A DNA stretch of 64,000 nt from a virus. Shown piece by piece: positions 47,539 to 59,090 of this stretch; the first letter of the stretch is position 1, and each line of letters opens with the position of its first letter. The notes beneath the pieces are model-generated. The model made no database searches and had not been told where the DNA came from. It worked only from the letters and a program-made list of their open reading frames with translations. The position numbers and the translations under genes were made by a program. The stretch is taken from IMG/VR virus record IMGVR_UViG_3300025597_000012. One strand, 5' to 3'.

Positions 47539-47893
47539 CTTTTAATTTTTTCTGTTCTAATCTATAAATTGCTAAGTCGTTTCTTTTCTTTAATAACTTT
47601 CTAAGATTTTCATATTTATAATCTAAGATTAAATTTTTCTTTTTTTCTGTAAACTTAGGTGAATAATATATGTTTCTTATTTTAGCTATTTCATCTTTTA
47701 TTTCAAAATAAAGTTTTTTAGGACTTACACAAATAGTTCCAAAATTCTTTATATAGATAGCATCATAAACTACATTAGCCAGTTGTTTTTTAATTCCTTC
47801 TTTCCAATAAAAAGCATTTACTTTCTTAACTAGATTAACTGGTAGATTTAGTTCTTCGGCTGCCTGTTTATAATAATTATCGGGTGTCTTCAT
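47489..47893 (-). CDS. Hypothetical basic protein (134 aa)
   Basis: ORF. It overlaps the next gene by 50 nt, so one of the two boundaries is uncertain. Confidence 0.35.
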   Translation of the reverse strand: MKTPDNYYKQAAEELNLPVNLVKKVNAFYWKEGIKKQLANVVYDAIYIKNFGTICVSPKKLYFEIKDEIAKIRNIYYSPKFTEKKKNLILDYKYENLRKLLKKRNDLAIYRLEQKKLKDERTFGIPEIDTESID

Positions 47894-48234
47894 TAACTAT
47901 TATCAACTTTAATTAAAACTCCTATAGCTGCGTCAGATTGAAAATTAATTTTATCGTTTATATGATATTCTTTAAGAGATGTTGATTTTTTAAGCAAACC
48001 AACTCTTTTAAGTTTAGAAATTGTATTGTTTAAAGAATCTTCGCTTTTCAAAAGTTCACTTTTTAATATCAGTTGTCTTGTGCTCTCACTATCTTTATAA
48101 ACTAAAAAATAAGCTAATACGGTAAGTTCCGTATCTGAAAGTTTAATATCAGACAATAAACAAAAAATTGAAAGAACAACTTTTGCCTGTTCAATCTTTC
48201 CGTAGCTCTTTTTTTCAATCTTTATAAGTTGCAC
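47893..48234 (-). CDS. Hypothetical protein (113 aa, HTH-like?)
   Basis: First ORF after the promoter at 48254-48284. Confidence 0.35.
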   Translation of the reverse strand: MQLIKIEKKSYGKIEQAKVVLSIFCLLSDIKLSDTELTVLAYFLVYKDSESTRQLILKSELLKSEDSLNNTISKLKRVGLLKKSTSLKEYHINDKINFQSDAAIGVLIKVDNS

Positions 48235-48253
48235 AACTAATTGGTTTTGAGGA

Positions 48254-48284
48254 CAAAGATAAGTATTTTATTTGAAATAACAAA
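48254..48284 (-). promoter_or_regulatory. Bacteroidota-type promoter of the morphogenesis operon
   Basis: Minus strand reads TTTG-N19-TATCTTTG. Confidence 0.6.
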
Positions 48285-48322
48285 ATTTTATATAAGACTT
48301 TAACATTTTGGTAACAAACAGG

Positions 48323-48358
48323 AAAGGCCGACTTACAACTAGTTGTAAATCAGCCTTT
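48323..48358 (-). terminator. Long near-perfect hairpin closing tRNA array 1
   Basis: AAAGGCCGACTTACAACT/AGTTGTAAATCAGCCTTT palindrome. The T-tract is clear on the plus strand and weaker on the minus strand. Confidence 0.45.
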
Positions 48359-48408
48359 TAATTTAACCCTCCACCTTAGTCCTGTACCAGCGGGATTGGG
48401 GGAATACG

Positions 48409-48480
48409 CACGGGCTGTGGGCATCGAACCCATCTCCATGCAAGGTTTTGGAGACCTGCTGCTTCCTAAAGCTAGCCCGG
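48409..48480 (-). tRNA. tRNA-Trp(CCA), non-canonical
   Basis: Anticodon loop CTCCAAA and T-arm ATGGG-TTCGATG-CCCAC. Irregular features are a tiny D-loop (GCTT-TAGG-AAGC), a C1.U72 mismatch and an 8-nt variable region. The TGG codon in the upstream leader supports the call. Confidence 0.5.
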
Positions 48481-48485
48481 ATAAG

Positions 48486-48558
48486 TACACTCTAAAAGAT
48501 TCGAACTTTTATTTCTTGGTTCGTAGCCAAGTGTCCTCATCCATTGGACGAAGAGTGC
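48486..48558 (-). tRNA. tRNA-Arg(ACG)
   Basis: Cloverleaf with anticodon loop CTACGAA and T-arm AAAAG-TTCGAAT-CTTTT. Confidence 0.8.
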
Positions 48559-48563
48559 AAAAG

Positions 48564-48636
48564 TGTGAATGACCAGACTCGAACTGGTACTTAGTAGCTC
48601 CACAAACTACCGCTCTACCATTAAGCTACATCCACC
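48564..48636 (-). tRNA. tRNA-His(GUG) with encoded G-1
   Basis: Anticodon loop TTGTGGA, an extra 5' G before acceptor GTGGATG, and T-arm ACCAG-TTCGAGT-CTGGT. Confidence 0.8.
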
Positions 48637-48643
48637 ATATGAG

Positions 48644-48714
48644 ATGCCTCTAAAGGACTCGAACCTGTAACTCTTGACCCAAAATCAAGCGTGTTGCCAT
48701 TACACTAAGAGGCA
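48644..48714 (-). tRNA. tRNA-Gln(UUG)
   Basis: Acceptor TGCCTCT/AGAGGCA (U1:A72) and anticodon loop TTTTGGG. Confidence 0.8.
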
Positions 48715-48719
48715 AAAAG

Positions 48720-48791
48720 CGTGGAAGGTGGATTCCGAGACCACAACACCTTGCTCTTCAGGCAAGTGCTCTACCTTTGAGCTACATCCAC
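48720..48791 (-). tRNA. tRNA-Phe(GAA), unusual T-loop
   Basis: Anticodon loop CTGAAGA. The T-loop is 9 nt (TCTCGGAAT) and there is one acceptor mismatch. Confidence 0.6.
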
Positions 48792-48798
48792 ATAATTG

Positions 48799-48872
48799 AG
48801 CCTGAGAAGGGAATCGAACCCTCAACCGCTAGTTTACAAAACTAGTGCTCTACCGATTGAGCCACTGCAGGC
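48799..48872 (-). tRNA. tRNA-Thr(UGU), bulged acceptor stem
   Basis: Anticodon loop TTTGTAA. The acceptor GCCTG(C)AG/CTCAGGC needs a 1-nt bulge. Confidence 0.6.
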
Positions 48873-48876
48873 ATAG

Positions 48877-48948
48877 TCTAGTTGACAGGGTTCGAACCTG
48901 CCTAGTCTTGCTCCCAAAGCAAGTGCCTAACCAATCGGCCACAACTAG
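48877..48948 (-). tRNA. tRNA-Pro(UGG)
   Basis: Perfect acceptor CTAGTTG/CAACTAG and anticodon loop TTTGGGA. Confidence 0.85.
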
Positions 48949-48952
48949 AAAT

Positions 48953-48977
48953 AAAAAACCCCGCTTTATAGGCGGGG
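48953..48977 (-). terminator. Intrinsic terminator (attenuator) immediately 5' of tRNA array 1
   Basis: Minus strand reads CCCCGC-CTATAAA-GCGGGG followed by TTTTTT. It ends 4 nt before tRNA-Pro. Confidence 0.7.
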
Positions 48978-49003
48978 CTTTAAGTATAATAATTGAGTTT
49001 CAA

Positions 49004-49078
49004 TTAGTTACACGTAGTGCATCCGCCACCAGATATTGTGGGCGTAAACCAAAAGCGTGTATGTTGAAACTGTTTCAT
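49004..49078 (-). CDS. Leader peptide L1 (24 aa) MKQFQHTRFWFTPTISGGGCTTCN
   Basis: Hand-translated, and below the ORF-track size cutoff. Codons 3-14 (Q F Q H T R F W F T P T) use only the 7 amino acids whose tRNAs follow, and they use all 7. It lies between the promoter and the terminator. Confidence 0.6.
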   Translation of the reverse strand: MKQFQHTRFWFTPTISGGGCTTCN

Positions 49079-49139
49079 ATTTAAAAAAGACCAATTCTAA
49101 GCGCGCTGTTCTATAGGAAGCGGAACTGGTATATTGATG

Positions 49140-49171
49140 CAAACTTACGAAGAATTTTTCAATCCTCCAAA
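49140..49171 (-). promoter_or_regulatory. Bacteroidota-type promoter of leader L1 / tRNA array 1
   Basis: Minus strand reads TTTG-N20-TAAGTTTG. Confidence 0.65.
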
Positions 49172-49204
49172 TTTATTTTGTTAAAATAACTAAAAAGAAT
49201 TAAT

Positions 49205-49741
49205 TTAACTTCCTAACTCATTGTCTAACAGACGTAAAGCTATTTTATCTGTACCAAAGGCAGCTAATCTATCCATAAGATTTTGAGTCTTTTCATGCTC
49301 TTCTATTTGTTCTTGTAAATATTTCATACCTAAAGTATAGAGCATAAAATCTGCTTCTTTTAAAGCATTAGCTGTCAATTCTTTACATTGCTTAGTTATA
49401 TCAATTTCATGTTGATAAGACTGTTTAATTATATCCGGTAAACCTGCAAATGTTTGTTTAGGTGAGTCTAGTTTTGGAGTTTCAGGTTGAACACCCATAG
49501 CTAAGAGATACTCTCTAGACCATTCTGCGTGTTTTAGCTCTTCCTCTGAATATTTTCTCCAAAGCTTTGCTGAACCTAGATAACCATTATTATTTAACCA
49601 CAGACTCATGGCTAAATATAGACGAGAAGAAAGCTCCTCTTGTTGGATTCTATTATTTAAAAATTGAACACATTTATTAGATAATAGTTCATTTTTACCT
49701 GTAAGGGAAATAGAATCTGTAGTTTTAAAATTAAGTTCCAT
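49205..49741 (-). CDS. Ferritin-like iron-storage protein
   Basis: IQQEELSSRLYLAMSLW...GSAKLWRKYSEEELKHAEW...SYQHEIDIT...LQEQIEEHE reproduces the spacing of ferroxidase-centre E/H residues in bacterial Ftn (compared from memory with E. coli FtnA). Confidence 0.7.
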   Translation of the reverse strand: MELNFKTTDSISLTGKNELLSNKCVQFLNNRIQQEELSSRLYLAMSLWLNNNGYLGSAKLWRKYSEEELKHAEWSREYLLAMGVQPETPKLDSPKQTFAGLPDIIKQSYQHEIDITKQCKELTANALKEADFMLYTLGMKYLQEQIEEHEKTQNLMDRLAAFGTDKIALRLLDNELGS

Positions 49742-49754
49742 TAAAAATTTTTCA

Positions 49755-49786
49755 CAAATATAACACTTTTTTGTGAAATTACCAAA
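49755..49786 (-). promoter_or_regulatory. Bacteroidota-type promoter of the ferritin gene
   Basis: Minus strand reads TTTG-N20-TATATTTG, 13 nt before the ATG. Confidence 0.65.
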
Positions 49787-49790
49787 TTTG

Positions 49791-49875
49791 TGAGAGTGGC
49801 TGGAGTCGAACCAGCACCCTTGCGGGACTACAGTTTTACAGACTGCTCCACCTAACCGATAGGTAGCTCACTCTC
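49791..49875 (-). tRNA. tRNA-Tyr(GUA), class II
   Basis: Anticodon loop CTGTAAA, variable arm CCC-GCAA-GGG and perfect acceptor GAGAGTG/CACTCTC. Confidence 0.8.
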
Positions 49876-49881
49876 AAATAG

Positions 49882-49967
49882 CGGAAACGAAAGGACTCGA
49901 ACCTTCAACCCAAATTAACGAGTAACGGTTTAGCAAACCGCTGCAGTACCATTATGCTTACGCTTCC
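49882..49967 (-). tRNA. tRNA-Ser(GCU), class II
   Basis: Anticodon loop TTGCTAA, long variable arm and T-arm GAAGG-TTCGAGT-CCTTT. Confidence 0.7.
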
Positions 49968-49972
49968 AATAG

Positions 49973-50056
49973 CGGTAGAGACAGGAATCGAACCTGTACG
50001 GCTATTACACCTTCATGGTTTTCAAGACCAATAAGCCCTCTCATTTGCGCTCTACC
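49973..50056 (-). tRNA. tRNA-Ser(UGA), class II
   Basis: Acceptor GGTAGAG/CTCTACC, anticodon loop CTTGAAA and long variable arm. The D-stem is weak. Confidence 0.6.
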
Positions 50057-50062
50057 AATATG

Positions 50063-50148
50063 TACTCCTGACTGGACTCGAACCAGCACGTCCATTTCTG
50101 GACAAGGGATTTTAAGTCCCTCGTGTCTACCAATTCCACCACAGGAGC
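50063..50148 (-). tRNA. tRNA-Leu(UAA), class II
   Basis: D-arm GTGGAATTGGTAGACAC, anticodon loop CTTAAAA and variable arm GTCC-AGAAAT-GGAC. Confidence 0.8.
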
Positions 50149-50153
50149 ATATG

Positions 50154-50237
50154 TAGCCTCGGAGAGACTCGAACTCTCACGTCCTTACGGACACTAGCTC
50201 CTAAGGCTAGCGCGTCTACCAATTCCGCCACAAGGCC
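50154..50237 (-). tRNA. tRNA-Leu(UAG), class II
   Basis: D-arm GCGGAATTGGTAGACGC, anticodon loop CTTAGGA and variable arm GTCC-GTAA-GGAC. Confidence 0.8.
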
Positions 50238-50240
50238 AAT

Positions 50241-50268
50241 AAAAAACCCCGACTATTGCTCGCCGGGG
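50241..50268 (-). terminator. Intrinsic terminator (attenuator) immediately 5' of tRNA array 2
   Basis: Minus strand reads CCCCGGC-GAGCAATA-GTCGGGG followed by TTTTTT. It ends 3 nt before tRNA-Leu. Confidence 0.7.
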
Positions 50269-50300
50269 TTTGAGGTTAAAGACCGTAGTCTAAAACAAGT

Positions 50301-50369
50301 TTACATAGTATTCCCAGCTCGATTTTTACTCGATAAACTGAGGGAATAATATGTGTTGTTTGTCTTCAT
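50301..50369 (-). CDS. Leader peptide L2 (22 aa) MKTNNTYYSLSLSSKNRAGNTM
   Basis: Hand-translated. Codons 7-14 are TAT TAT TCC CTC AGT TTA TCG AGT (Y Y S L S L S S). They use only Tyr/Ser/Leu and cover both Ser boxes and both Leu boxes, matching the downstream Leu, Leu, Ser, Ser, Tyr tRNAs. Confidence 0.6.
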   Translation of the reverse strand: MKTNNTYYSLSLSSKNRAGNTM

Positions 50370-50386
50370 TGCGTTTGAAAGGAATA

Positions 50387-50418
50387 CAAATATACGAAAA
50401 ATATTTGAAACTACCAAA
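50387..50418 (-). promoter_or_regulatory. Bacteroidota-type promoter of leader L2 / tRNA array 2
   Basis: Minus strand reads TTTG-N20-TATATTTG. Confidence 0.65.
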
Positions 50419-50424
50419 TTTTTA

Positions 50425-52368
50425 TTAATAAATATTTATTGCTAGTTTTTCTTTAAATAACTGCTTTTGGTAAAAGCGTTGTTTTAAAAATGAATATCTA
50501 TCGTAAGATTTGTTAATATCATATAATAAATTAGCTAATAAAGAGTTACCAACAGAAGCTATAAAAGTATTTATTTTTTGAAATAACGCTCTGAAATACA
50601 AGATATTAGTTTCTCTTGTAGGAAGGTGAATCTTTACTGATTTAGGTACTCTTACTGGCGGTGCTTCATTTACTGTTACCTGAACAGTATCTGTTCCTAC
50701 TGCACCATTGTTATCAGTAACTGTTAATGTAAATGTATATATTCCGGCTGCTAAACCGCTAACTATAGTAGTTGGTGAAGTAGGTGTTTCTATTAAATGT
50801 GCTGTAGGCCCACTTGTTTTTGTCCAATTATAAGAAGAAATAGTGCCATCTGTATCAGTCCCGCTACCATTTAAAGTTGCACTATTAGCAGGAAGAGTTA
50901 TAATTTTATCTTCTCCTGCATTTGCAACTGGGGCTATATTTTGTGCAGCAATTACAGTAATTATTACATTAGAACTGCCTGTTGCACCGTTATTATCAGT
51001 AACTGTAAGTCTAAAAGTATATATACCTGTAGATAAAGCACTTACAACCGTTGATGCGGAATTAGGTGATTGTATAGTAGCATTTGTAGGGCCACTAACT
51101 TGAGTCCAAGCATATGAAGAAATAGTCCCATCACTATCCGAACCGGTTCCGTTTAAAGTCACAGAACTTGCTGGTGCTTGTATAGATTGATTATTTCCTG
51201 CATTTGCAGTGGGTGGGGTATTTCCAACACAATTTGTTGTATATACTATTCCCGGTGTAACATCTATATCCGATGGAGAATTATCTGCTAATTTTGTATT
51301 TCCACAAATTATATTATCTGTGTTATATCTATTTGGATAATTTCCTCCATTATCATCAACACTAATATCAAAAGTTTGAAGAGAACCGCGAGAACCTGTT
51401 CTATTATTCTTGATAATAAATGTAGTATTCTCTACAGGAATTGTATTTCTTGGAGAAACAATAATAGCCCAAGGCCATACAAGACTATGGTCTAAACCAT
51501 CTCTTGTAGCTGAAGCAGGAAGAAATCCACTATGATTAATAGTATTATTTTCAATTCTTACATAAGTTCCTCCAAGTGAAGCAATACCCCAAACATAAGT
51601 ATAATCAATATTATTATCATGAATATACACTTTTGAATAAAGTCCTATATTAATACCGTTACCTTGACCATCACTAATTTCAAGACCTGCATTAGTAATT
51701 GTATTATTATAAATTTCACTTATACCAAGTTCAGCATCAGAAAGTTGAATAGCGGCACGACCTGTTTTATCAAATATGTTATGGTGAATTTTAAAATTAC
51801 CAAGGCGTGTCGGTTTATATTGTCCTTGAGTTGCAGGCACTCCATTACAAACAATAGGATTTCTATCTAACCAAAGAGCATTAGGGTCTGTAGAACCACA
51901 GTACATACCTTCGTATGTAATATTTCTTACTCTACAGTGATGAACTTCAATATTATTTATATACCAGTTAGGATATTGTAATGATGGGTCACAACTAGCT
52001 TCATTTTTAATCCAAAAACCAAAGGCTCCACCATCTATATCTATGTTAGAAACTTCTATATCAGAAACTCTTCCATGTAAAGAACATCCTGTTGAAACAA
52101 AACCATAGGTATCTGCTGAACCAGTTCCTAAAATTTTAATATGTGTACAATGTTCAATATCAAATGATACTTGAACTTGTCCGCCTTCATTTATAATGGT
52201 GATAGGCTGGTCAGCAGTACCATGTACTTCTGCCATATAAAAATAACTTCTAGGATTATCTGAAGCTCTAAGTACAATAGTATCTCCCGGATTAAAAATA
52301 CCCGGACTATTGATACCATTAAACATGTAACCGTTGTCTCCCTGTTTACCGGGATAATGTATTGCCAT
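50425..52368 (-). CDS. Right-handed beta-helix (polysaccharide lyase/depolymerase-like) protein with two PKD/Ig-like repeats
   Basis: Beta-helix repeat signatures NNTITNAG, IHDNNIDY and IENNTINHSG. Two repeats follow of the form ANAG.(D/N)..I..P...(V/A)TLNG(T/S)G(S/T)D(S/T)DGTISSY.WT.(V/T)SGPT. Confidence 0.55.
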   Translation of the reverse strand: MAIHYPGKQGDNGYMFNGINSPGIFNPGDTIVLRASDNPRSYFYMAEVHGTADQPITIINEGGQVQVSFDIEHCTHIKILGTGSADTYGFVSTGCSLHGRVSDIEVSNIDIDGGAFGFWIKNEASCDPSLQYPNWYINNIEVHHCRVRNITYEGMYCGSTDPNALWLDRNPIVCNGVPATQGQYKPTRLGNFKIHHNIFDKTGRAAIQLSDAELGISEIYNNTITNAGLEISDGQGNGINIGLYSKVYIHDNNIDYTYVWGIASLGGTYVRIENNTINHSGFLPASATRDGLDHSLVWPWAIIVSPRNTIPVENTTFIIKNNRTGSRGSLQTFDISVDDNGGNYPNRYNTDNIICGNTKLADNSPSDIDVTPGIVYTTNCVGNTPPTANAGNNQSIQAPASSVTLNGTGSDSDGTISSYAWTQVSGPTNATIQSPNSASTVVSALSTGIYTFRLTVTDNNGATGSSNVIITVIAAQNIAPVANAGEDKIITLPANSATLNGSGTDTDGTISSYNWTKTSGPTAHLIETPTSPTTIVSGLAAGIYTFTLTVTDNNGAVGTDTVQVTVNEAPPVRVPKSVKIHLPTRETNILYFRALFQKINTFIASVGNSLLANLLYDINKSYDRYSFLKQRFYQKQLFKEKLAINIY

Positions 52369-52378
52369 TTATTTTAAT

Positions 52379-52744
52379 TTAGGATATTACTTTAGTTGTT
52401 GAATCACTATAGGTTATAGTGACTATTTTTGTATCAAAATCTACTACTACATCATCTATTACTCTAGTAACAGTTACTTTTACACTATCTGAACTAGTTG
52501 CTCCTTTGTTATCAGTAGCAGTTAATTTAAACGTATAACTACCTAAAAGAAGTCCTGTAATTGTAGGAGTAAGGGTATTTTGTCCTGTAATTGTACAAGT
52601 ACCTCCGCTAGTTTTAGTCCAAACTACTGAAGAAATAGTACCATCAGGGTCTGTGGCAGTTCCAGTTAGAACTATTTGATTATTAGGAAGTTGTACTATT
52701 TTATCAACTCCTGCATTTACTATAGGTACTTTATTTATTGCCAT
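52379..52744 (-). CDS. PKD/Ig-like domain protein (start trimmed to MAINKVP)
   Basis: The same repeat type is present (VNAGVDKIVQLPNNQIVLTGTATDPDGTISSVVWTKTSG). The track start at 52780 lies inside the promoter, and the next ATG is 52744. Confidence 0.5.
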   Translation of the reverse strand: MAINKVPIVNAGVDKIVQLPNNQIVLTGTATDPDGTISSVVWTKTSGGTCTITGQNTLTPTITGLLLGSYTFKLTATDNKGATSSDSVKVTVTRVIDDVVVDFDTKIVTITYSDSTTKVIS

Positions 52745-52749
52745 ATTTA

Positions 52750-52781
52750 CAAATATACAAAAAAAAAACCATATTGCCAAA
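52750..52781 (-). promoter_or_regulatory. Bacteroidota-type promoter
   Basis: Minus strand reads TTTG-N20-TATATTTG, 5 nt before ATG 52744. Confidence 0.6.
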
Positions 52782-52784
52782 TTT

Positions 52785-53243
52785 CTAGTTTCGGCAAATA
52801 TGGTCTGCTGCTTTTGAAGCTATCATCTCGTCTGGTTTTACTAAAACATTATATCCTAGTGATTTAACCCAACCGGTAATAGCTGGAACAAGATTTGTTG
52901 ATTTTGTTATTTTTGCATTATTATAATCGAACTCAAGGGCTTCAAATTGGACTGGAACTTCTGCATTTATAGTTTGAGCTGTATCTATTGTTATTTCAGC
53001 TTCCTTCCATAAACGGCTAAAAGTATCCCTTATCCTAGGGATTCTTTGCTTTCTATATACAAAGTGTGCTCCCCTAAGTCCATATCTGAACACAACCGCC
53101 GTAGCGTAAACTGTATTCGACCCGTAATTCTGTGAGTCAGTAGCTATGTAAATCTTTAGGTTTGGATTCTGCTGTATTTGTTCTACAACGTGTTCCACTA
53201 TGTTTACTAACTTTCCTTCCTCTGTCCGAAAGTATTTGTCCAT
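52785..53243 (-). CDS. YkuK/DUF458-like RNase-H-fold protein
   Basis: The pattern LKIYIATDSQNYGSNTVYATAVVFRYGLRGAHFVYRKQRIPRIRDTFSRLWKEAEITI matches, from memory, the ..GTDSQ....tiv.H..g.Ga.f.Y.k signature of this family. Confidence 0.5.
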   Translation of the reverse strand: MDKYFRTEEGKLVNIVEHVVEQIQQNPNLKIYIATDSQNYGSNTVYATAVVFRYGLRGAHFVYRKQRIPRIRDTFSRLWKEAEITIDTAQTINAEVPVQFEALEFDYNNAKITKSTNLVPAITGWVKSLGYNVLVKPDEMIASKAADHICRN

Positions 53244-53255
53244 TGGTTTTATTTG

Positions 53256-53331
53256 TGGAATCTATGGGCATCGAACCCATCTGGTATTCTGCTTGCAAGG
53301 CAGACGACCACTCCAAGCAGTCCCAGACCCC
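53256..53331 (-). tRNA. tRNA-Ala(UGC)
   Basis: Acceptor GGGGTCT/AGATTCC includes the G3.U70 pair. Anticodon loop CTTGCAA and T-arm ATGGG-TTCGATG-CCCAT. Confidence 0.7.
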
Positions 53332-53456
53332 AAATGCGGGGGACTACGGCCCCCTAAAGATGTCTTATTAGGTTTCATCTCTGTCCCGGATTACGCTAGC
53401 GAGCTACCGGGGAAACCACGCTACATACTTTCGTAGAGGTTATGCGGGTTACACTG
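53332..53456 (-). other. Structured 125-nt spacer inside the tRNA array (not foldable as a tRNA)
   Basis: Nested stems GGTTTC/GAAACC and CCCGG/CCGGG, hairpin GGGGG-CCGTAGT-CCCCC and hairpin TAC-GAAA-GTA. No T-loop. Confidence 0.35.
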
Positions 53457-53529
53457 TGCTCACGCTAAGACTCGAACTTAGACTCTCTCGCGTATCAGGC
53501 GAGAGCTTTAACCATTAAGCTACATGAGC
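53457..53529 (-). tRNA. tRNA-Ile(GAU)
   Basis: Anticodon loop CTGATAC and T-arm CTAAG-TTCGAGT-CTTAG. Confidence 0.8.
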
Positions 53530-53581
53530 TGGAGAGGGACAGGTTATTTATACCTTCAAAGGACTCCCTCAGACCTCTTCG

Positions 53582-53654
53582 TACTCTCAAAGGGATTCGA
53601 ACCCTAAATTGCCTGTGTATAAGACAGGAGTTTTCACCGTTAAACTATGAGAGC
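53582..53654 (-). tRNA. tRNA-Ile(UAU)
   Basis: Anticodon loop CTTATAC and T-arm TAGGG-TTCGAAT-CCCTT. AUA codons are used three times in leader L3. Confidence 0.7.
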
Positions 53655-53801
53655 AAGTAAAGAGAGTGGGATTAGATTTCCGGGGATTGACCCAACCTGT
53701 GTCCTAATCTTATTTATCCTTGTACGGAGGCACACTCTCTTTGAATGGTCGGGCGGATTGCTTCTTTCAGCCTCAGACATTAATTACAATGTTGCCCGAT
53801 G
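53655..53801 (-). other. Structured 147-nt spacer inside the tRNA array (tRNA-like stems but no canonical cloverleaf)
   Basis: Acceptor-like pairs TCGGGC/GCCCGA and GAGAGTG/CACTCTC. Internal hairpins ACATT-GTAATTA-AATGT and GATTAG...CTAATC. No TTCGA T-loop. Confidence 0.3.
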
Positions 53802-53874
53802 CGGTCTATCACGGATTCGAACCGAGACTACCGCATAGACAGTGCGGCGTGTTCAACCATTACACTAATAGACC
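53802..53874 (-). tRNA. tRNA-Asp(GUC)
   Basis: Perfect acceptor GGTCTAT/ATAGACC and anticodon loop CTGTCTA. Confidence 0.8.
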
Positions 53875-54504
53875 ATAAACTTTATCCATGTTTGTTTTTC
53901 CGTTGCCATGAATAATCAACGGCTGAGTACCAGTTTTTTTATTAATCAGGATTCCATGTCTGTACTCAAAGTCATCTTCTGATTCAAAAGCTACAGATTG
54001 AAATAAATCACAGTTGGTATCCAACTTCATGTTATATTTATCTCTGTGCTTCAGATAAATTTCTGCTAAGTTAACTTGGTCATTATCACTATGTTTTATT
54101 GGATAATCCTCAAACATCTTGATAAATAAATCTACATTAACAAAGCATGCACCACCATTCAGATATTTCCAATCACTTTTTACTTTAGGATATTTTTCTG
54201 CCCAATCTGAATAAGGCCAGCATCCTTTTTCTGCGTTAAATATAATAGAATCAATATCATCTATTCTATCTATTGCTTGTTGCATTGTACCCAAAACTAT
54301 GATGTCATAAGTGTCTAGGATAAACAAGTGAGTACAATCTGTTTGCTTTGCATAGTTATAAGCGTTAACCATTTTACTACCATAAGCTTTATAGGTATCA
54401 GTCAGAATATCATAATTCCAATCAAACCTATCAAGTGAATCTTTAAACTGTTTAAACCCTTCGTGGTTTAAGTTGGTTGCTGTTCCTATTACGTTTACTT
54501 TCAT
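53860..54504 (-). CDS. GT-A glycosyltransferase resembling the collagen (LH3/PLOD-type) glycosyltransferase domain
   Basis: LFILDTYDIIV (DxD-like), FNAEKGCWPY, KYLNGGACFVNV and PLIIHGNGKT. From memory, these parallel VDSYDVI / FSAE.FCWP / FLNSGGFIG / VHGNGPTK of LH3. The 3' end overlaps tRNA-Asp by 15 nt. Confidence 0.5.
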   Translation of the reverse strand: MKVNVIGTATNLNHEGFKQFKDSLDRFDWNYDILTDTYKAYGSKMVNAYNYAKQTDCTHLFILDTYDIIVLGTMQQAIDRIDDIDSIIFNAEKGCWPYSDWAEKYPKVKSDWKYLNGGACFVNVDLFIKMFEDYPIKHSDNDQVNLAEIYLKHRDKYNMKLDTNCDLFQSVAFESEDDFEYRHGILINKKTGTQPLIIHGNGKTNMDKVYGLLV

Positions 54505-55289
54505 TTGAATGGATTATAATAAATAGATATTGTATTATTCTTATAACCCTGAACGGTTTCGTGATAGGTTTTCCATTGTTCAGAAGCATGGTTTTCTTTC
54601 CATTTCTGGTATGGTGTTCCTCCTGTATCTATGTGTTCTATCTCTATATGAGGTAAGAATACACTTTTAAACCCTGATAGTCTTGCTCTTATAGACATAA
54701 GGACATCATCAAATCCGTATAAACTAGGTTGGTATAAATAACCTATTTTATCAAGTAAAGCTGCTGAGTGCATAACACAAGTACCCATCACATGATTTAC
54801 TTGTTCTACTACTACCCATTTTTCACCGGGCTGGTGTTGAAGCATTAGTAATTCTGACTTATAAAAATCAGTTCTATTTGGTGATTCCCAACAATCTTTT
54901 CTTTTCAAGCCCACCTGTCCAATAGTATTGTCACGGCGAAAAACTTCTTCCATCTGTTCTATCCAACCTGATTGATGTATTACTACATCATCATCAATTT
55001 TAACACAATTCTCTCCGGGTTTTCTTTCTTTCCATGCTAAATTAATAGCTTCAGCAGTTCCTAGATTTTTATCATTCCAGATAACTTTATCAATTACAGA
55101 AAAAATTCCATTTGATTCAGAAAAATCTTCTATTATTTCTTTTGTTCTAGTAGTATAGGAATTTACAGAAAGTATTAATCTGTGTGAATCCCAGTCAACT
55201 GTTTTTTCTAAAGAATCTAATGTTTTATAAAGATATGTATCTTTATCATTATCTTCAGTACAATAAACAGCCATTGCTATTAAAGCCAT
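54501..55289 (-). CDS. Family-2-like glycosyltransferase (start trimmed to MALIAMAVYC)
   Basis: GT2-like N-terminal beta-strand, NLGTAEAINLAW and a KIDDDVVI DxD motif. The track start at 55331 lies inside tRNA-Glu. Confidence 0.55.
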   Translation of the reverse strand: MALIAMAVYCTEDNDKDTYLYKTLDSLEKTVDWDSHRLILSVNSYTTRTKEIIEDFSESNGIFSVIDKVIWNDKNLGTAEAINLAWKERKPGENCVKIDDDVVIHQSGWIEQMEEVFRRDNTIGQVGLKRKDCWESPNRTDFYKSELLMLQHQPGEKWVVVEQVNHVMGTCVMHSAALLDKIGYLYQPSLYGFDDVLMSIRARLSGFKSVFLPHIEIEHIDTGGTPYQKWKENHASEQWKTYHETVQGYKNNTISIYYNPFK

Positions 55290-55304
55290 TGGTTTTATTT
55301 TTAG

Positions 55305-55379
55305 TATTCTGGAAGGGACTCGAACCCTCACTGACCACAGTGAAAGTGTGGTGACTTATTCCAATTTGTCAACCAGAAC
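55305..55379 (-). tRNA. tRNA-Glu(UUC)
   Basis: Anticodon loop CTTTCAC and T-arm GAGGG-TTCGAGT-CCCTT. Confidence 0.8.
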
Positions 55380-55380
55380 A

Positions 55381-55452
55381 TTTGCAGTTTAGTCGGCCTC
55401 TACTATACCTAGGCCGCAGAGAGTATAGACTCGTATTCCATCTACTGCAAAA
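55381..55452 (-). other. 72-nt three-way-junction element between tRNA-Gly and tRNA-Glu
   Basis: Closing stem TTTGCAG(tt)TAG/CTACTGCAAA and hairpins CGGCC-13nt-GGCCG and GAGT-ATAG-ACTC. Its size is tRNA-like, but there is no T-loop and no anticodon arm. Confidence 0.3.
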
Positions 55453-55460
55453 AGGAATTG

Positions 55461-55531
55461 AGCGAGTAGTGGGAGTCAAACCCACGCCTTAACCTTGGAA
55501 GGGTCATATGCTATCGTAACACTTCACTCGC
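55461..55531 (-). tRNA. tRNA-Gly(UCC)
   Basis: Anticodon loop CTTCCAA and T-arm GTGGG-TTTGACT-CCCAC. The 5' 21 nt overlap the HNH ORF's 3' end. Confidence 0.7.
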
Positions 55532-55942
55532 TAATGCTTCTTTATAATGTAAATCTCTATGACAATTAGCACATAAAACTTTACATTTATTTATTTCTTC
55601 TTGTAATAGTTTTTTAGAACATTTTGTTACAAGTTGTGATACTTCTGAATCTTTTTCATTTGGATTTTTATGATGAAAATCTAAAACCCAATATCTACTA
55701 TCTCCACATGATTCACAAGATAAAGTACTTTTGTATTCAGAAAACCATTTTCTAAAGTCTTGTTTATACTTTACTGCTTTTTGAATATACTTTTCTTTAT
55801 TTTTTTCGTAATGCTTTTTTCTATATTCTTTTTGACAAGCTTTACAATTACTTTGATAAAGTAAATTTTTTCTATCTTTTCTTGTAGCAAACTCCGTTAA
55901 AGGAAGTTCTTTTTTACAAATTGTACATTTTTTAATTTTCAT
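55511..55942 (-). CDS. HNH endonuclease (start trimmed to MKIKKCT)
   Basis: CxxC pairs plus DFHHKNP...CANCHRDLH. The track start at 55978 lies inside the promoter. Confidence 0.65.
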   Translation of the reverse strand: MKIKKCTICKKELPLTEFATRKDRKNLLYQSNCKACQKEYRKKHYEKNKEKYIQKAVKYKQDFRKWFSEYKSTLSCESCGDSRYWVLDFHHKNPNEKDSEVSQLVTKCSKKLLQEEINKCKVLCANCHRDLHYKEALASEVLR

Positions 55943-55947
55943 ATATG

Positions 55948-55979
55948 TAAATATACGAAAAATAATTGATACTTCCAAA
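55948..55979 (-). promoter_or_regulatory. Bacteroidota-type promoter (imperfect -7 box TATATTTA)
   Basis: Minus strand reads TTTG-N20-TATATTTA, 5 nt before ATG 55942. Confidence 0.45.
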
Positions 55980-56001
55980 TTTTATTTTATTTGGAAGGAT
56001 G

Positions 56002-56073
56002 TTGCGTAGGCTGGATTCGAACCAGCGACCTAATGGTTATGAGCCATCCGAGCTACCTCTGCTCTACCACGCA
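56002..56073 (-). tRNA. tRNA-Met(CAU) (elongator or Ile2-type; not initiator-like)
   Basis: Anticodon loop CTCATAA and T-arm GCTGG-TTCGAAT-CCAGC. There is no GGG/CCC anticodon stem. Confidence 0.75.
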
Positions 56074-56183
56074 ATTTATCCCCGGACTAGTGCGCCTTCC
56101 TCCGGGGGTGTTATTGCTTATCTTCTTCGTCAATAACTAAACCCTTTTGGGTCGGCCAACGGATACTATCCGCAGGGGGGGGG
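56074..56183 (-). other. Hairpin-dense 110-nt spacer upstream of tRNA-Met with a C9 (plus-strand G9) homopolymer
   Basis: Stems CGGA/TCCG, ACCC/GGGT, TTATTG/CAATAA and CCCCGGA/TCCGGGG. The G9 run is at about 56175-56183. Confidence 0.3.
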
Positions 56184-56396
56184 CTATCTTAATATCTTTA
56201 AACCGCTGGTAGCAGTCCAAAGAACATAATTGTTTTTCTTTACTTCACCCATTACTATTTTCTTTTCATAATTAGTAACTCGTGAAGTAGGAAGGGTAAC
56301 CAACCAGTGAATGAATTTTTCTCGTTCACCTTTGTATTTTTTAATACTGGCTATCCTACGGTATTCCTTACCGTCTTTTATGACTGTATCATTCAT
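56184..56396 (-). CDS. Hypothetical protein (70 aa)
   Basis: ORF starting 2 nt after the tRNA-Asn 3' end. Confidence 0.35.
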   Translation of the reverse strand: MNDTVIKDGKEYRRIASIKKYKGEREKFIHWLVTLPTSRVTNYEKKIVMGEVKKNNYVLWTATSGLKILR

Positions 56397-56397
56397 G

Positions 56398-56472
56398 CGG
56401 GACAGGATGGACTCGAACCAACGACCTTAGAGTTAACAGCTCTCTGCTCTCGACCAACTGAGCTACAGTCCC
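56398..56472 (-). tRNA. tRNA-Asn(GUU)
   Basis: Anticodon loop CTGTTAA. One mismatch each in the acceptor and T stems. Confidence 0.65.
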
Positions 56473-56513
56473 CTTTTGTATTTTTAACTCCACGCAGAAT
56501 ACTAACTGACCTG

Positions 56514-56587
56514 AAGCCCTGAAAGGAGTCGAACCTTCATCTAATAGTTTAGAAAACTATGACATTCATCCATTATGCTACAGGGCC
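56514..56587 (-). tRNA. tRNA-Arg(UCU)
   Basis: Anticodon loop TTTCTAA and T-arm GAAGG-TTCGACT-CCTTT. Confidence 0.8.
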
Positions 56588-56590
56588 ATG

Positions 56591-56665
56591 TACATCTGGA
56601 ATGAGTCGAACATTCGGTCTCCGTCTTGTAAGGGCGGTGCTTTCAACCAACTAAGCTACAGATGC
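56591..56665 (-). tRNA. tRNA-Val(UAC)
   Basis: Anticodon loop CTTACAA and T-arm GAATG-TTCGACT-CATTC. One C.A mismatch in the anticodon stem. Confidence 0.7.
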
Positions 56666-56720
56666 AAATATAATACTTTATTTAAAGCTTACCAAATAAA
56701 GTATGTTAAAGTTTTGTTAG

Positions 56721-56791
56721 AGGACAAGATAGGAATCGAACCTACGCTGGAGGTGTTGCAGACCTCTGCCTTACCGCTTGGCTACTTGTCC
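56721..56791 (-). tRNA. tRNA-Cys(GCA)
   Basis: Perfect acceptor GGACAAG/CTTGTCC and anticodon loop CTGCAAC. Confidence 0.8.
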
Positions 56792-56794
56792 ATG

Positions 56795-56868
56795 TGCTAC
56801 CGAAGGGACTCGAACCCATAACCTCCTGATTAAAAGTCAGAAGCTCTACACTATTGAGCTACGATAGC
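56795..56868 (-). tRNA. tRNA-Lys(UUU)
   Basis: Anticodon loop CTTTTAA and D-arm GCTC-AATAGTGTA-GAGC. Confidence 0.75.
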
Positions 56869-56872
56869 AAAT

Positions 56873-56897
56873 AAAAAACCCTCCTTTAAGGGGAGGG
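56873..56897 (-). terminator. Intrinsic terminator (attenuator) immediately 5' of tRNA-Lys
   Basis: Minus strand reads CCCTCC-CCTTAAA-GGAGGG followed by TTTTTT. It ends 4 nt before tRNA-Lys. Confidence 0.7.
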
Positions 56898-56920
56898 CTT
56901 CAGTAATATTCGTGGTTAAA

Positions 56921-57013
56921 TTAAACCAGTTCTATATCAGACATAGCTCTCCTGATGATGGTATCTCTACCCACCTCTTTACAAATCATATTTATGGCTA
57001 TGTTCTTTCTCAT
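56921..57013 (-). CDS. Leader peptide L3 (30 aa) MRKNIAINMICKEVGRDTIIRRAMSDIELV
   Basis: Hand-translated. The first 17 residues use exactly the 11 amino acids (K C V R N M G E D I A) of the 12 tRNAs between here and the next leader. All Arg codons are AGA/AGG, and Ile is encoded by ATA three times plus ATT/ATC. Confidence 0.55.
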   Translation of the reverse strand: MRKNIAINMICKEVGRDTIIRRAMSDIELV

Positions 57014-57030
57014 TTTAAATTTAAGTTATG

Positions 57031-57062
57031 CAAACTTACGACAAATATTTGGATTTTCCAAA
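57031..57062 (-). promoter_or_regulatory. Bacteroidota-type promoter of leader L3
   Basis: Minus strand reads TTTG-N20-TAAGTTTG. Confidence 0.65.
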
Positions 57063-57080
57063 TTTATTAATAGAAAATAA

Positions 57081-57281
57081 TTAAATCTTTTGTGAATATC
57101 TTTTCCAGCCTGTAACTTTATTGATAGCGTCTACTAGTTTATTGTAATCTTTACGCCAGTTTTTATAAGCTTTGGAGCGTTTATCTGATGGCTCCTTAGC
57201 GGCCTGTTCAGCTAAAAGTTCATCAGCATGACCTACGTTTACAATAATTATTTCTTTATCGTCAATCATTACTCTTTCCAT
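57081..57281 (-). CDS. Hypothetical protein (66 aa)
   Basis: ORF coupled to its upstream neighbour. Confidence 0.35.
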   Translation of the reverse strand: MERVMIDDKEIIIVNVGHADELLAEQAAKEPSDKRSKAYKNWRKDYNKLVDAINKVTGWKRYSQKI

Positions 57282-57607
57282 TACTTTATTCTTTTAATAA
57301 GTTCACCACTAAGCTCCTCATAAATTCTTGAGAATTTTTCATAACCCATTCTTATTAAGAACATTCCGTAGTTTAAAAATATCTTTACGTGCTCATCATC
57401 TTCTTTACCATAAGCTACAATATCATTTAAATTGACTACTAATGGTTTATATGTAGTTTCTGAATCATCTTCATCTTCTTCATCTTCTTCATATTTATCA
57501 CCTTTAATCAGACGTTTAGCTATTCTTGCAGCTTTGTCTTCTTCTGATTCATTGTTCTTGTCTTTAAAGACTCTTACTTTTACAAAAAATTCTACGCGTT
57601 GTGCCAT
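57281..57607 (-). CDS. Hypothetical acidic protein (108 aa)
   Basis: ORF with an EDEEDEDD tract. Confidence 0.35.
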   Translation of the reverse strand: MAQRVEFFVKVRVFKDKNNESEEDKAARIAKRLIKGDKYEEDEEDEDDSETTYKPLVVNLNDIVAYGKEDDEHVKIFLNYGMFLIRMGYEKFSRIYEELSGELIKRIK

Positions 57608-57620
57608 GTTTTTTATTTTG

Positions 57621-57736
57621 CAGTATGGGAAGGATTCGAACCTTCATAGTTTAATGTATCGTTCACTAGGAATACTTAATACTTATAAACTGCCACCGAG
57701 ACTAGGTGGTGCGTCTGCCAGTTCCGCCACCGTACT
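57621..57736 (-). tRNA. Aberrant 116-nt tRNA-like gene (identity unassigned)
   Basis: Acceptor AGTACGG/CCATACT (one mismatch), a Leu-type D-arm GCGGAACTGGCAGACGC and a canonical T-arm GAAGG-TTCGAAT-CCTTC. The anticodon loop TAGTCTC has A at position 33, and about 46 nt are inserted in the variable region. Its own promoter ends 7 nt upstream. Confidence 0.4.
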
Positions 57737-57743
57737 ATAAGTA

Positions 57744-57774
57744 CAAAGATAGTGAAAAATTTTGAGATTACAAA
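57744..57774 (-). promoter_or_regulatory. Bacteroidota-type promoter of the tRNA-like gene
   Basis: Minus strand reads TTTG-N19-TATCTTTG. Confidence 0.6.
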
Positions 57775-57776
57775 AT

Positions 57777-58544
57777 TTATAATCGACTTCCTAGAAAAAT
57801 TAATCCTCCAAATTCCAGAGCTTTTAACAAAATATTAGGTTTTTTAACAGGAGAATAGATTACTGAATTCTGTCCCATTACGTTAATAAATTGTGAACTA
57901 TGCAATACCTGAACCTGAAATTTAGGTTTAGAGAAAGGATGGAAAAATCCTCTTTTAAGTTTTACTACTCTAATATATTGAGTATCAGCTATTGAGATAG
58001 TTCCAAGATGAAATCCTGTCTTTGTGATTACTCCTGAAAGTCTTATACCTTCCTGATATTTATCTTCAACGCTATCTAAAGTTACAGCTTTAGGAACCTT
58101 AATCATATTGTTCAGGACGTAGTTATATAAAGAGGCTGTGTCTTTATATTTACTTAATTCCTTTCTAACACTGTCTATGGTAGCTGTGTCCTTATAAGGA
58201 ATGAAGGTATTATCTATATGAGCTGAGAGTTGTGCTTCGTAGTAGAATGTGACATCCTTAATTTTCTTCTCATACTTTTTAGTCAGATTAAACTTCTGGT
58301 CAGTAAGGTCTTTAATCTCAGCTTGATTATCTGTGATAATAGAAGTCTGAGTATAAACGGTTTGTTTTAACTCATTTTTAATACTGTCTAATTTTTGGTT
58401 AGCTAAGGTCAAAGAATCCAATGCCACGTTCTGACGAGCTACTTGGGATTCGTAATTACACTTGTTAAGAAAAAGACAAAGAAATAATCCAGCTATTACT
58501 GAGAAATAAATGTAGTCTTTGAAATTAATTTTAGGGAATGTCAT
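57777..58544 (-). CDS. Membrane-anchored / lipoprotein-like protein (255 aa)
   Basis: N-terminal hydrophobic segment ending ...LFLNKC. Confidence 0.4.
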   Translation of the reverse strand: MTFPKINFKDYIYFSVIAGLFLCLFLNKCNYESQVARQNVALDSLTLANQKLDSIKNELKQTVYTQTSIITDNQAEIKDLTDQKFNLTKKYEKKIKDVTFYYEAQLSAHIDNTFIPYKDTATIDSVRKELSKYKDTASLYNYVLNNMIKVPKAVTLDSVEDKYQEGIRLSGVITKTGFHLGTISIADTQYIRVVKLKRGFFHPFSKPKFQVQVLHSSQFINVMGQNSVIYSPVKKPNILLKALEFGGLIFLGSRL

Positions 58545-58558
58545 GTTTTTGATTTGTT

Positions 58559-58591
58559 CAAATATAAGGCATTTGGATACCCAAATCCAAA
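58559..58591 (-). promoter_or_regulatory. Bacteroidota-type promoter
   Basis: Minus strand reads TTTG-N21-TATATTTG, 14 nt before ATG 58544. Confidence 0.55.
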
Positions 58592-58604
58592 TCTTTTAAG
58601 TTAA

Positions 58605-59090
58605 TTAAATGTTAAGGAGTCTACAGATATAGCGGAAGGCAGATTTATCTTTACATTCTCCTTCAAAAAGTATTTTGTCACTATTATGTATTTTAAAAAT
58701 ACTTAGATATGTAGTGTCATCTTCATCTTCTTTTTGTCCATTGAAAAAATGAATAATTCTATTTTCTTTCTCCCAAAGGTATTCTCTCCAATGAATACAT
58801 CTCCATCCCTCAGCTATTATATCTTCCTTGGTAAGATAGGGTACTCTAATAAGTCCTCTTTCCAAATTGGAGGCTAAAGTTGGGCTTCCGTCTGATAAGA
58901 ATGTTTCTTTAACCCAGTTGTCCTCAAGTACCCAGTCTGCTACAGGTTGGGGATAATCCATTTTAATTAGCTGTTCCTTAGGTATATATCTAAGGAAATT
59001 TTGTTCATACTCGTACCCGTAAATAAAGTCTTCCAGTTTAGGAGTGAAATACTTACTGTCCATTGTCTTTGGTTTTATGTGAGCCGTCAC
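58605..59090 (-). CDS. Hypothetical protein (161 aa; start may be the internal MDSKYF at 59063)
   Basis: ORF. The first ATG overlaps the upstream gene by 38 nt. Confidence 0.4.
   Translation of the reverse strand: MTAHIKPKTMDSKYFTPKLEDFIYGYEYEQNFLRYIPKEQLIKMDYPQPVADWVLEDNWVKETFLSDGSPTLASNLERGLIRVPYLTKEDIIAEGWRCIHWREYLWEKENRIIHFFNGQKEDEDDTTYLSIFKIHNSDKILFEGECKDKSAFRYICRLLNI

Follow-up and report, generated by a model that had tools for sequence, protein, structure and literature searches.

Introduction

Transcription attenuators of the trpL, hisL, pheL, leuL, thrL and ilvL kind consist of a promoter, a short open reading frame (ORF) carrying regulatory codons, mutually exclusive 1:2, 2:3 and 3:4 hairpins, and a terminator placed just before the regulated genes. 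Here we describe an element of similar layout, with candidate alternative pairings, leader A, in a 64,000-nt stretch of virus DNA (IMG/VR record IMGVR_UViG_3300025597_000012; the whole stretch is called the window below), where a 30-codon ORF between a promoter and a terminator precedes a block of phage tRNA genes (unit A). Folding and comparison with relatives suggest that leader A is probably a stall-to-read-through (ribosome-mediated) transcription attenuator of this block. As in the classical attenuators, a stall at the regulatory codons would free region 2. The thr and ilv leaders are multivalent, with two or three amino acids, and leader A has 11 amino acids in 16 codons. Unlike the leaders of biosynthesis operons, it stands ahead of tRNA genes, so that the loop would act on decoding capacity and not on amino-acid synthesis, and its setting is a phage with a Bacteroidota-type promoter and no Shine-Dalgarno sequence.

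Two further systems are close to leader A. The pheM leader of the E. coli pheST operon encodes a Phe-codon peptide ahead of translation-machinery genes and responds to charged tRNA-Phe; it differs from leader A in that it controls a synthetase, senses one amino acid and is bacterial. T-box riboswitches, as leader A would, sense tRNA status and switch between terminator and antiterminator upstream of translation-related genes, but they bind uncharged tRNA directly via a specifier codon and the T-box sequence, have no ORF and sense one tRNA per element. The T-box covariance model (RF00230) gave no match in 47000-59000 at E <= 1, and leader A had no Rfam match at the same threshold and by sequence belongs to none of the curated leader families. 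The E. coli tRNA-Phe gene pheV, considered as a possible precedent, was discarded, as no leader ORF or terminator is present in its sequence.

Phage tRNA clusters (T4, T5, large Bacteroides phages and others) have small ORFs and homing endonucleases interspersed and are thought to offset codon-usage mismatch or host tRNA loss. Unit A resembles the T4/T5-type clusters in being a tRNA array with small ORFs and homing endonucleases between the genes. To our knowledge no demand-sensing leader has been described ahead of phage tRNA arrays, and full-text literature searches returned no report of a leader peptide or attenuator ahead of tRNA genes in phages or bacteria. The type of switch is known; what is new is the tRNA-gene target, the 11-input valency and the setting in uncultured phages with Bacteroidota-type promoters.

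Anatomy of leader A

All coordinates refer to the window, and tRNA leader units A, B and C all lie on its minus strand. The original prediction had placed a promoter of the form TTTG-N20-TAAGTTTG at 57062-57031, an ORF at 57013-56921 and a terminator (CCCTCC-CCTTAAA-GGAGGG plus U6) at 56897-56873, with tRNA-Lys beginning 4 nt later, and each of these features was found again in the sequence. The promoter is of the Bacteroidota type, with TTTG (-33) at 57062-59, a 20-nt spacer and TAAGTTTG (-7) at 57038-31; the complete sequence reads AAATTTGG-N-TCGTAAGTTTG, and transcription is predicted to start at about 57027. TTTG-N20-TAnnTTTG, which we take to be the promoter form of Bacteroidota, occurs 9 times in the window against 0.65 expected, with seven of the nine on the coding strand. 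The AAATTTGG...TCGTAAGTTTGCAT box also lies ahead of leaders B and C of the window and ahead of leaders in two relatives (L024 and L112). An A/U-rich stretch of 14-17 nt leads from the promoter to the ATG of leader A, with no Shine-Dalgarno sequence.

The ORF starts with ATG at 57013, runs for 30 codons to a TAA at 56923-56921 and encodes MRKNIAINMICKEVGRDTIIRRAMSDIELV. It is a single frame with start and stop inside the leader transcript, and the source contigs carry no gene call for it. Codons 2-17 (RKNIAINMICKEVGRD, 57010-56963) form a putative sensing core in which all residues belong to the 11 amino acids served by the tRNAs of unit A; ribosome-mask simulation gave codons 1-17 as the sensing window. 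A 20-nt spacer separates the stop codon from the terminator hairpin. The intrinsic terminator (56900-56873) consists of AAGCCCUCC (region 3), the loop CCUUAAA, GGAGGGUUU (region 4) and U6 at 56878-56873, with a hairpin dG of -12.9. As DNA it reads AAGCCCTCC-CCTTAAA-GGAGGGTTTTTT and ends at 56873, with the CCCTCC/GGAGGG hairpin starting from 56897 and followed by T6. This hairpin is the strongest terminator-like site on the minus strand between 52600 and 57150, and tRNA-Lys starts at 56868, 4 nt past the U run. Because the leader A promoter lies upstream of the hairpin, the hairpin terminates transcripts of that promoter.

Codon content of the leaders and their tRNA units

Residues 1-17 of leader A all fall within the amino-acid set of unit A (Lys, Cys, Val, Arg, Asn, Met, Gly, Glu, Asp, Ile and Ala) and include all 11 members, and 27 of the 30 residues of the whole peptide are in the set; our recount agreed with the original prediction on each of these points. 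The set accounts for a fraction of 0.592 (59.2%) of the residues in the 30 long ORFs of the window. Against this background, the probability that the 16 residues after Met1 are all in the set is 2.3e-4, and that of an in-set run of at least 16 anywhere in the 29 residues of leader A is 1.4e-3. The probability of covering all 11 amino acids, given that all residues are in the set, is 0.018, for a joint probability of about 4e-6. Among 265 ATG-ORFs of 20-60 codons in the window, leader A ranked first both in run length and in coverage of the unit A set, and the other two reading frames of the leader A region contained nothing comparable.

The match extends to codons. The tRNAs of unit A can decode 14 of the 16 core codons with strict wobble and 16 of 16 with relaxed wobble. 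Ile is encoded by ATA three times, ATT once and ATC twice, in line with the earlier reading of three ATA codons plus ATT/ATC. Arg had been said to use five codons, all AGA or AGG; the restriction to AGR held, and the count is four (R2 AGA, R16 AGA, R21 AGG and R22 AGA). We rejected AGR-only Arg as evidence for leader A alone, because AGR already makes up 78.6% of the Arg codons in the window (P = 0.38 for four out of four).

The window contains two sister units. Leader B (50418-50240) has a promoter, an ORF at 50369-50301 (MKTNNTYYSLSLSSKNRAGNTM) and a terminator, followed by tRNA-Leu(tag), Leu(taa), Ser(tga), Ser(gct) and Tyr. Leader C (49171-48952) likewise has a promoter, an ORF at 49078-49004 (MKQFQHTRFWFTPTISGGGCTTCN) and a terminator, followed by tRNA-Pro, Thr, Phe, Gln, His, Arg(acg) and a degenerate Trp(cca). 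Both leaders matched their own tRNA units (P = 2e-5 for B and 6e-7 for C) and showed no match to the other units, and for the set of each unit the leader of that unit came first among the 265 small ORFs. Together the three units hold 24 tRNAs for all 20 amino acids, split into three blocks.

Chance, by which the ORF would be accidental and the hairpin, behind an ordinary promoter, would merely stop transcription coming from upstream or stabilise the pre-tRNA, hardly seems credible as an explanation. The set makes up 59% of residues by background, so that long runs are not astronomically rare (the P of 1.4e-3 above), and AGR-only Arg is expected anyway. However, all three window leaders match their own units, the pattern is repeated, with covariation, in 13 diverged relatives, and the promoter is upstream of the hairpin, so the hairpin ends that promoter's own transcripts.

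Leaders in related phages

Relatives were found through neighbouring proteins. In GenBank phages, megablast with the 9-kb region returned stray tRNA matches only, and tblastn with an RNaseH-like protein of the locus returned nothing closer than 39% identity. IMG/VR relatives reached via the glycosyltransferase and the ferritin-like protein were without tRNAs, and an exact search for the leader sequence in IMG/VR gave no match. Identical-protein look-up yielded solely contigs from anaerobic-digester metagenomes that were 100% identical over the leader, with no microdiversity to use; the digesters behind the contigs are recorded under JGI 3300010348 and 3300009710 and ENA ERZ27257446 and ERZ724020. 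Two anchors gave diverged loci. The first was a 255-aa protein encoded upstream, whose 43%-identical homologue led to L024 (one of the three homologues looked up had tRNA arrays). The second was the RNaseH-like gene (PF04308) that closes unit A, through which about 80 tRNA-array loci in IMG/VR and four Logan/ENA contigs were reached. By these routes we obtained 13 diverged uncultured relatives in which the tRNA order and the three leader/terminator units recur.

The 14 leaders of family A share 7-50% identity with the window peptide, and Met1 is the sole invariant residue. In the relatives the order of the peptide is scrambled, but the amino-acid set of a core stays that of its own tRNA unit. 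Loss of the set match in relatives with the same tRNAs, which would have counted against the original prediction, was not seen: the cores of the 13 relatives include every, or almost every, amino acid of the unit. The leader peptides read MRKNIAINMICKEVGRD... in the window, ...NIVVMEIGRCKDADCRRAM... in L112, ...NVIANICIDMVGRNEK... in L111, ...DIIIGRCADKNEGVN... in L113, ...IVDNMICGNGRAKE... in L030, ...IADICNMVGK... in L024, ...INMIVDRINGAEK... in L031, ...YMIADNGDVRGIEKNG... in L033, ...NMIVDRMIGANEK... in L034 and ...IVVDNGMARGIEKDG... in L035, and further family A leaders are present in L036, L039, L066 and L089. The longest in-set runs of the family cover 11/11, 11/11, 11/11, 10/11, 11/11, 9/10, 10/10, 10/10, 10/10 and so on of the unit amino acids. 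Family B has a Ser/Leu/Tyr run that is reshuffled in every phage, and family C has a Pro/Thr/Phe/Gln/His/Arg/Trp run. With relaxed wobble, 129/133, 80/83 and 113/113 core codons of the three families are readable by the tRNAs of their own unit.

The position of tRNA-Cys differs among these phages, and the Cys codon differs with it. Where tRNA-Cys is in unit A (6 phages), Cys is present in the leader A core in 6/6. Where tRNA-Cys is in unit C (Pro Thr Cys Phe Trp..., 8 phages), Cys is present in 0/8 leader A cores and in 7/7 leader C cores (...TCPQCPF...). The association between Cys codon and tRNA-Cys location gave a Fisher p of 3e-4, a value that overstates the number of separate events because the relatives are phylogenetically non-independent; the Cys shift is probably a single evolutionary event, yet it needed matched changes in two leaders. 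The core Arg codons were 13/13 AGA in leader A, whose unit has Arg-UCU, and 11/11 CGY in leader C, whose unit has Arg-ACG (p = 4e-7, to be read with the same caution), while CGN makes up 21% of Arg codons in the background. The codon content of leader A is very probably under selection to mirror its own tRNA unit.

That the small ORFs are functional micropeptides of a conserved family, with a set resemblance unrelated to regulation, is very unlikely. The peptides are homologous across phages and share recurring short motifs (MIVDN, EK and GSGFLLS), as such a family would. However, 7-50% identity with a single invariant Met1 and a family B run that is reshuffled from phage to phage do not fit a conserved peptide, the conservation of C-terminal motifs falls on region 2 and so suggests an RNA constraint, and the covariation of Cys and Arg codons has no explanation at the peptide level.

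A more distant clade (L073, ~7658-7765 and 11303-11371; L103) carries one 34-residue leader that uses 16 amino acids and has no Gly, Ala, Asp or Glu, and a second leader (MKNLHILLIGGDLAEATFKKRV) ahead of a Leu-Met-Gly-Ala-Glu-Asp block. The run test is uninformative for the long leader, because its unit holds 19-20 amino acids, and the missing Gly/Ala/Asp/Glu in the first leader is only suggestive. The leader principle seems to extend beyond the three-unit clade.

Predicted ribosome-gated RNA pairing

We folded truncated transcripts with a ribosome footprint placed at each codon. Region 2 of leader A (GGAGAGCUAUGUCU, 56952-56939) lies in codons 21-25, and its GGAGAGCU part pairs with the 5' arm of the terminator as a candidate antiterminator of 8 bp with one A.C mismatch. 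This GGAGAGCU:AGCCCUCC pairing, in which GGAGAGCU corresponds to codons 21-24, was open with the ribosome at codons 1-17 and lost from codon 18. The original prediction had proposed a GGAGAGC:GCCCTCC alternative pairing, which folding recovered, with ribosome gating predicted at codons 1-17, although its statistics are weak when leader A is taken alone (P = 0.12). It had also reported no convincing partner for region 1; we found a candidate in GAACAUAGCC (57006-56997), which pairs with GCUAUGUC of region 2 in the minimum-free-energy fold through CAUAGC (57002-56997) and GCUAUG (56947-56942), a pairing that is weak judged alone. In L112, the closest homologue of leader A, which shares RRAM-DIELV and the GGAGAGCUAUGU segment and has a conserved region 2, core codons form a long 1:2 hairpin with region 2 (z = -5.06).

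The structural case rests on the family and not on the window leader A alone. The 30 leaders first examined have a complement of the terminator 5' arm at codons 17-25, and this complement changes with the terminator sequence (region 2/terminator arm: GGCTCTGG/CCAGAGCC, GGCTCCGGG/CCCGGAGCC, GCCTCAGGGTTC/GAACCCTGAGGC and GGAGAGC/GCCCTCC). Across these 30 leaders, the energy of the duplex between ORF and terminator had a mean of -13.2 kcal/mol for matched pairs vs -8.5 for mismatched pairs (permutation P < 5e-5). For family A, covariation was measured by such matched-vs-mismatched duplex energies, as the leaders are too diverged and indel-rich for a trustworthy alignment. The in-set core ends at the last codon where a stalled ribosome would leave region 2 free. 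Over the 10 codons that precede the masking of region 2, in-set residues numbered 93/100 in family A (59 expected), 70/80 in family B (15 expected) and 85/90 in family C (23 expected).

The leader may be translated and its codons selected while the switch is something other than hairpin competition, such as exposure to Rho by uncoupling, processing or stability of the pre-tRNA 5' leader, or release of a regulatory small RNA. The antiterminator of leader A is weak, the tRNA starts only 4 nt past the U run, so that the leader doubles as an RNase P substrate leader, and the 5' untranslated region (UTR) of leader C has an extra hairpin and U run, all of which would fit such a switch. We nevertheless consider it unlikely, since these alternatives call neither for a strong terminator nor for a complement in the ORF that keeps a constant spacing from the core and changes with the terminator over 30 leaders, and simple Rho polarity would give less tRNA on stalling, that is, positive feedback on scarcity.

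Reversed logic, in which efficient translation of the leader gives read-through and stalling gives termination, as in a feed-forward or quality-control gate, is improbable. The direction of the switch is taken from folding only, and in the simulation region 2 is free again with the ribosome near the stop codon. However, the last of the in-set codons lies exactly at the point from which a stalled ribosome would cover region 2, which is the geometry of classical stall-to-read-through attenuators, and a feed-forward gate would silence the tRNA genes when they are needed.

Proposed attenuation mechanism

The stall-to-read-through reading builds on what is seen in silico, that is, on the anatomy, the codon-to-tRNA match, the conservation and covariation in relatives and the geometry of alternative pairing. 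In this mechanism, transcription would start from the 57031 promoter and the 30-codon leader would be translated while it emerges, with codons 2-17 demanding solely the 11 amino acids of the tRNAs encoded downstream. With all tRNAs of the set plentiful, the ribosome would proceed over codons 18-29 and mask region 2 (GGAGAGCU), so that the CCCUCC/GGAGGG hairpin with U6 would form and the transcript would stop 4 nt ahead of tRNA-Lys. With any tRNA of the set scarce, the ribosome would stall within codons 1-17 and leave region 2 free to pair with the terminator 5' arm, and RNA polymerase would continue into the tRNA genes. The net effect would be an 11-input OR gate with negative feedback on decoding capacity, and the sister leaders would perform the same task for Leu/Ser/Tyr (B) and Pro/Thr/Phe/Gln/His/Arg/Trp (C). 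A sensing window limited to the unit's own amino acids is what selection is expected to produce if stalls at other codons induce the block uselessly.

Attenuators react to tRNA dosage and not to amino acid supply alone. The pheA attenuator is derepressed 6-7 fold in a mutant without one tRNA-Phe gene (PMC3082878).

Several points weigh against this mechanism. We infer that the ORF is translated, that ribosomes stall in it, which way the switch works and how far read-through transcripts reach. The footprint model is crude and treats a kinetic process at equilibrium. In leader A itself the 2:3 duplex is modest (dG -9.6 kcal/mol vs a codon-shuffle mean of -7.4 +/- 1.8, P = 0.12, rank 9/30), and the whole-leader fold has a z of -1.77. 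The relatives are not independent of one another, as said for the Fisher tests; L024 keeps AGR codons with no tRNA-Arg(tct) detected there, L039 has a Val codon without tRNA-Val, and the leaders of several relatives open with 3-5 out-of-set residues. Amino-acid starvation would trigger the switch too, where extra tRNA gives no help. Two internal promoter-like sites in unit A (56696-56665 and 55979-55948) bear on the reach of the leader and are described below.

On balance we favour the view that phages of this uncultured Bacteroidota-infecting lineage meter their own tRNA supply, dividing their full set of tRNAs among blocks behind leaders that list exactly the tRNAs of each block and inducing a block when any of them becomes limiting. 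A tRNA might run short through a codon-usage mismatch, through decay of host tRNAs or through anticodon-nuclease defence. It is also reasonably likely that a tRNA gene moving between blocks is accompanied by its codon moving between leaders.

The role of phage tRNA genes is a long-standing question; the candidate answers are that they compensate for codon usage, replace host tRNAs that were degraded or let the phage escape tRNA-cleaving defences. If attenuation holds, the tRNAs of a unit would be made on demand, and the leader would mark out the tRNAs that form one regulatory block for the phage. Leader A would then be the first known case of an attenuator acting on tRNA genes, with a higher valency than any other described leader; it would bring tRNA supply, beside amino-acid supply, within the scope of attenuation and raise the number of inputs from one to three up to eleven. 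A leader and terminator fused to a read-out would report when each tRNA becomes limiting in infection, and engineering would gain a compact OR gate of natural origin that senses translation capacity. The joint movement of codon and tRNA provides an annotation rule for such leaders in metagenomic phages, which gene callers presently miss.

Reach of leader A within unit A

Unit A (56868-53255) contains 12 tRNAs with protein-coding ORFs interspersed. ARAGORN and Rfam confirmed the order given in the original prediction: tRNA-Lys(ttt) (56868-56794), Cys (56791-56720), Val (56665-56590), Arg(tct) (56587-56513), Asn (56472-56397), Met (56073-56001), Gly(tcc) (55531-55460), Glu (55379-55304), Asp (53874-53801), Ile(tat) (53654-53581), Ile(gat) (53529-53456) and Ala (53331-53255). 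Default ARAGORN misses tRNA-Gly(tcc), which was detected by Rfam at 50.1 bits and by ARAGORN at a relaxed threshold. The ORFs within the unit are a 70-aa ORF, an HNH endonuclease (55942-55511) and two glycosyltransferases.

The doubt that one leader controls all 12 tRNAs, voiced from the start, was upheld. The internal site at 56696-56665 is a perfect promoter motif whose final G is nucleotide 1 of tRNA-Val, and it is conserved in L112, L111 and L024; a start site there would fall a few bases inside tRNA-Val. The site at 55979-55948, already listed as an additional promoter, looks real, with one mismatch in the -7 box, and lies ahead of the HNH endonuclease ORF. Because of these two sites, the distal tRNAs of unit A could be made independently of leader A. 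The next strong terminator (52806-52762) follows the RNaseH-like gene (53243-52785) and is likely the end of the unit A transcription unit; no strong terminator lies between 56873 and this site on the minus strand, where two weak candidates (56153-56140 and 54026-54012) were found. Leader A and the leaders of several relatives list all 11 amino acids, an argument for selection on the block as a whole. Only Lys and Cys, and perhaps Val, can be taken as strictly dependent on leader A; that it governs all 12 tRNAs is a tentative claim, to which we give even weight at most.

Other features of the arrays

The RNaseH-like gene at 53243-52785 (minus strand; PF04308, YkuK/DUF458 type) is a near-constant neighbour of large phage tRNA arrays (about 80 IMG/VR loci, L030-L109) and usually closes a block; it may act in tRNA processing or repair. 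The arrays contain inserted HNH homing-endonuclease genes; that of the window (55942-55511, minus strand) overlaps the first ~20 nt of tRNA-Gly(UCC), and in L033 an HNH gene lies between the leader A terminator and tRNA-Lys (L032/L033 around 8940-9050).

Several spacers of unit A are conserved. The ~40-nt spacer between tRNA-Arg(UCU) and tRNA-Asn (AGGTCAGTT...CTGCGTGGAGTTAAAAA, 56512-56473, minus strand) is conserved in L112, L031, L034, L035, L039 and L089, and in L089 it sits between two Gly tRNAs instead. Two long, G+C-rich and structured-looking spacers lie on the minus strand between Ile(GAU) and Ala (53455-53332, 124 nt) and between Asp and Ile(UAU) (53800-53655, 146 nt). Parts of both are conserved in L112 and L036, and neither had an Rfam match; they could be small RNAs or processing elements. 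Upstream of leader A, relaxed ARAGORN reported a 72-nt tRNA-Ser(CGA) at 57691-57620 (minus strand), in a 170-nt gap upstream of the ORF at 57607-57281. A Ser tRNA would be longer, and the call is probably false or reflects a tRNA-like fold.

In unit B, a long-arm tRNA occupies 50056-49974 (minus strand), between Leu(UAA) and Ser(GCU); its anticodon loop is CTTGAAA, and it was read as Ser(UGA). ARAGORN missed it and Rfam gave only a Sec-like match at 35.6 bits; the relatives have Ser(tga) at the same position. In unit C, the degenerate tRNA-Trp(CCA) at 48480-48408 (minus strand), which follows Arg(ACG), has an acceptor-stem mismatch and a short D arm and was missed by default ARAGORN and Rfam. 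Its presence accounts for the Trp codon that is conserved in leader C; at this place the relatives carry a normal tRNA-Trp. The 5' UTR of leader C holds a second hairpin and U run (49130-49082, minus strand) between promoter and start codon. Leader C scored 33.9 bits against the Rfam family Trp_leader (RF00513), below the 41-bit gathering threshold, and the alignment covers mainly the terminator, so this was set aside as resemblance and not membership. A conserved 93-nt spacer (AAAGCAGT.GGAGAGCGGACGAGCT.CGAAAG.ATAAGGTTACTA...), absent from the window, lies inside unit C of L111 and L024 (between Thr and Phe) and of L113 (between Phe and Gln).

Suppressor-type tRNAs with the anticodon CTA, reported as Pyl or Stop, are present in some related arrays (L031 at 12056-12128; L065, L067 and L073), which hints at stop-codon reassignment or suppression in those phages.

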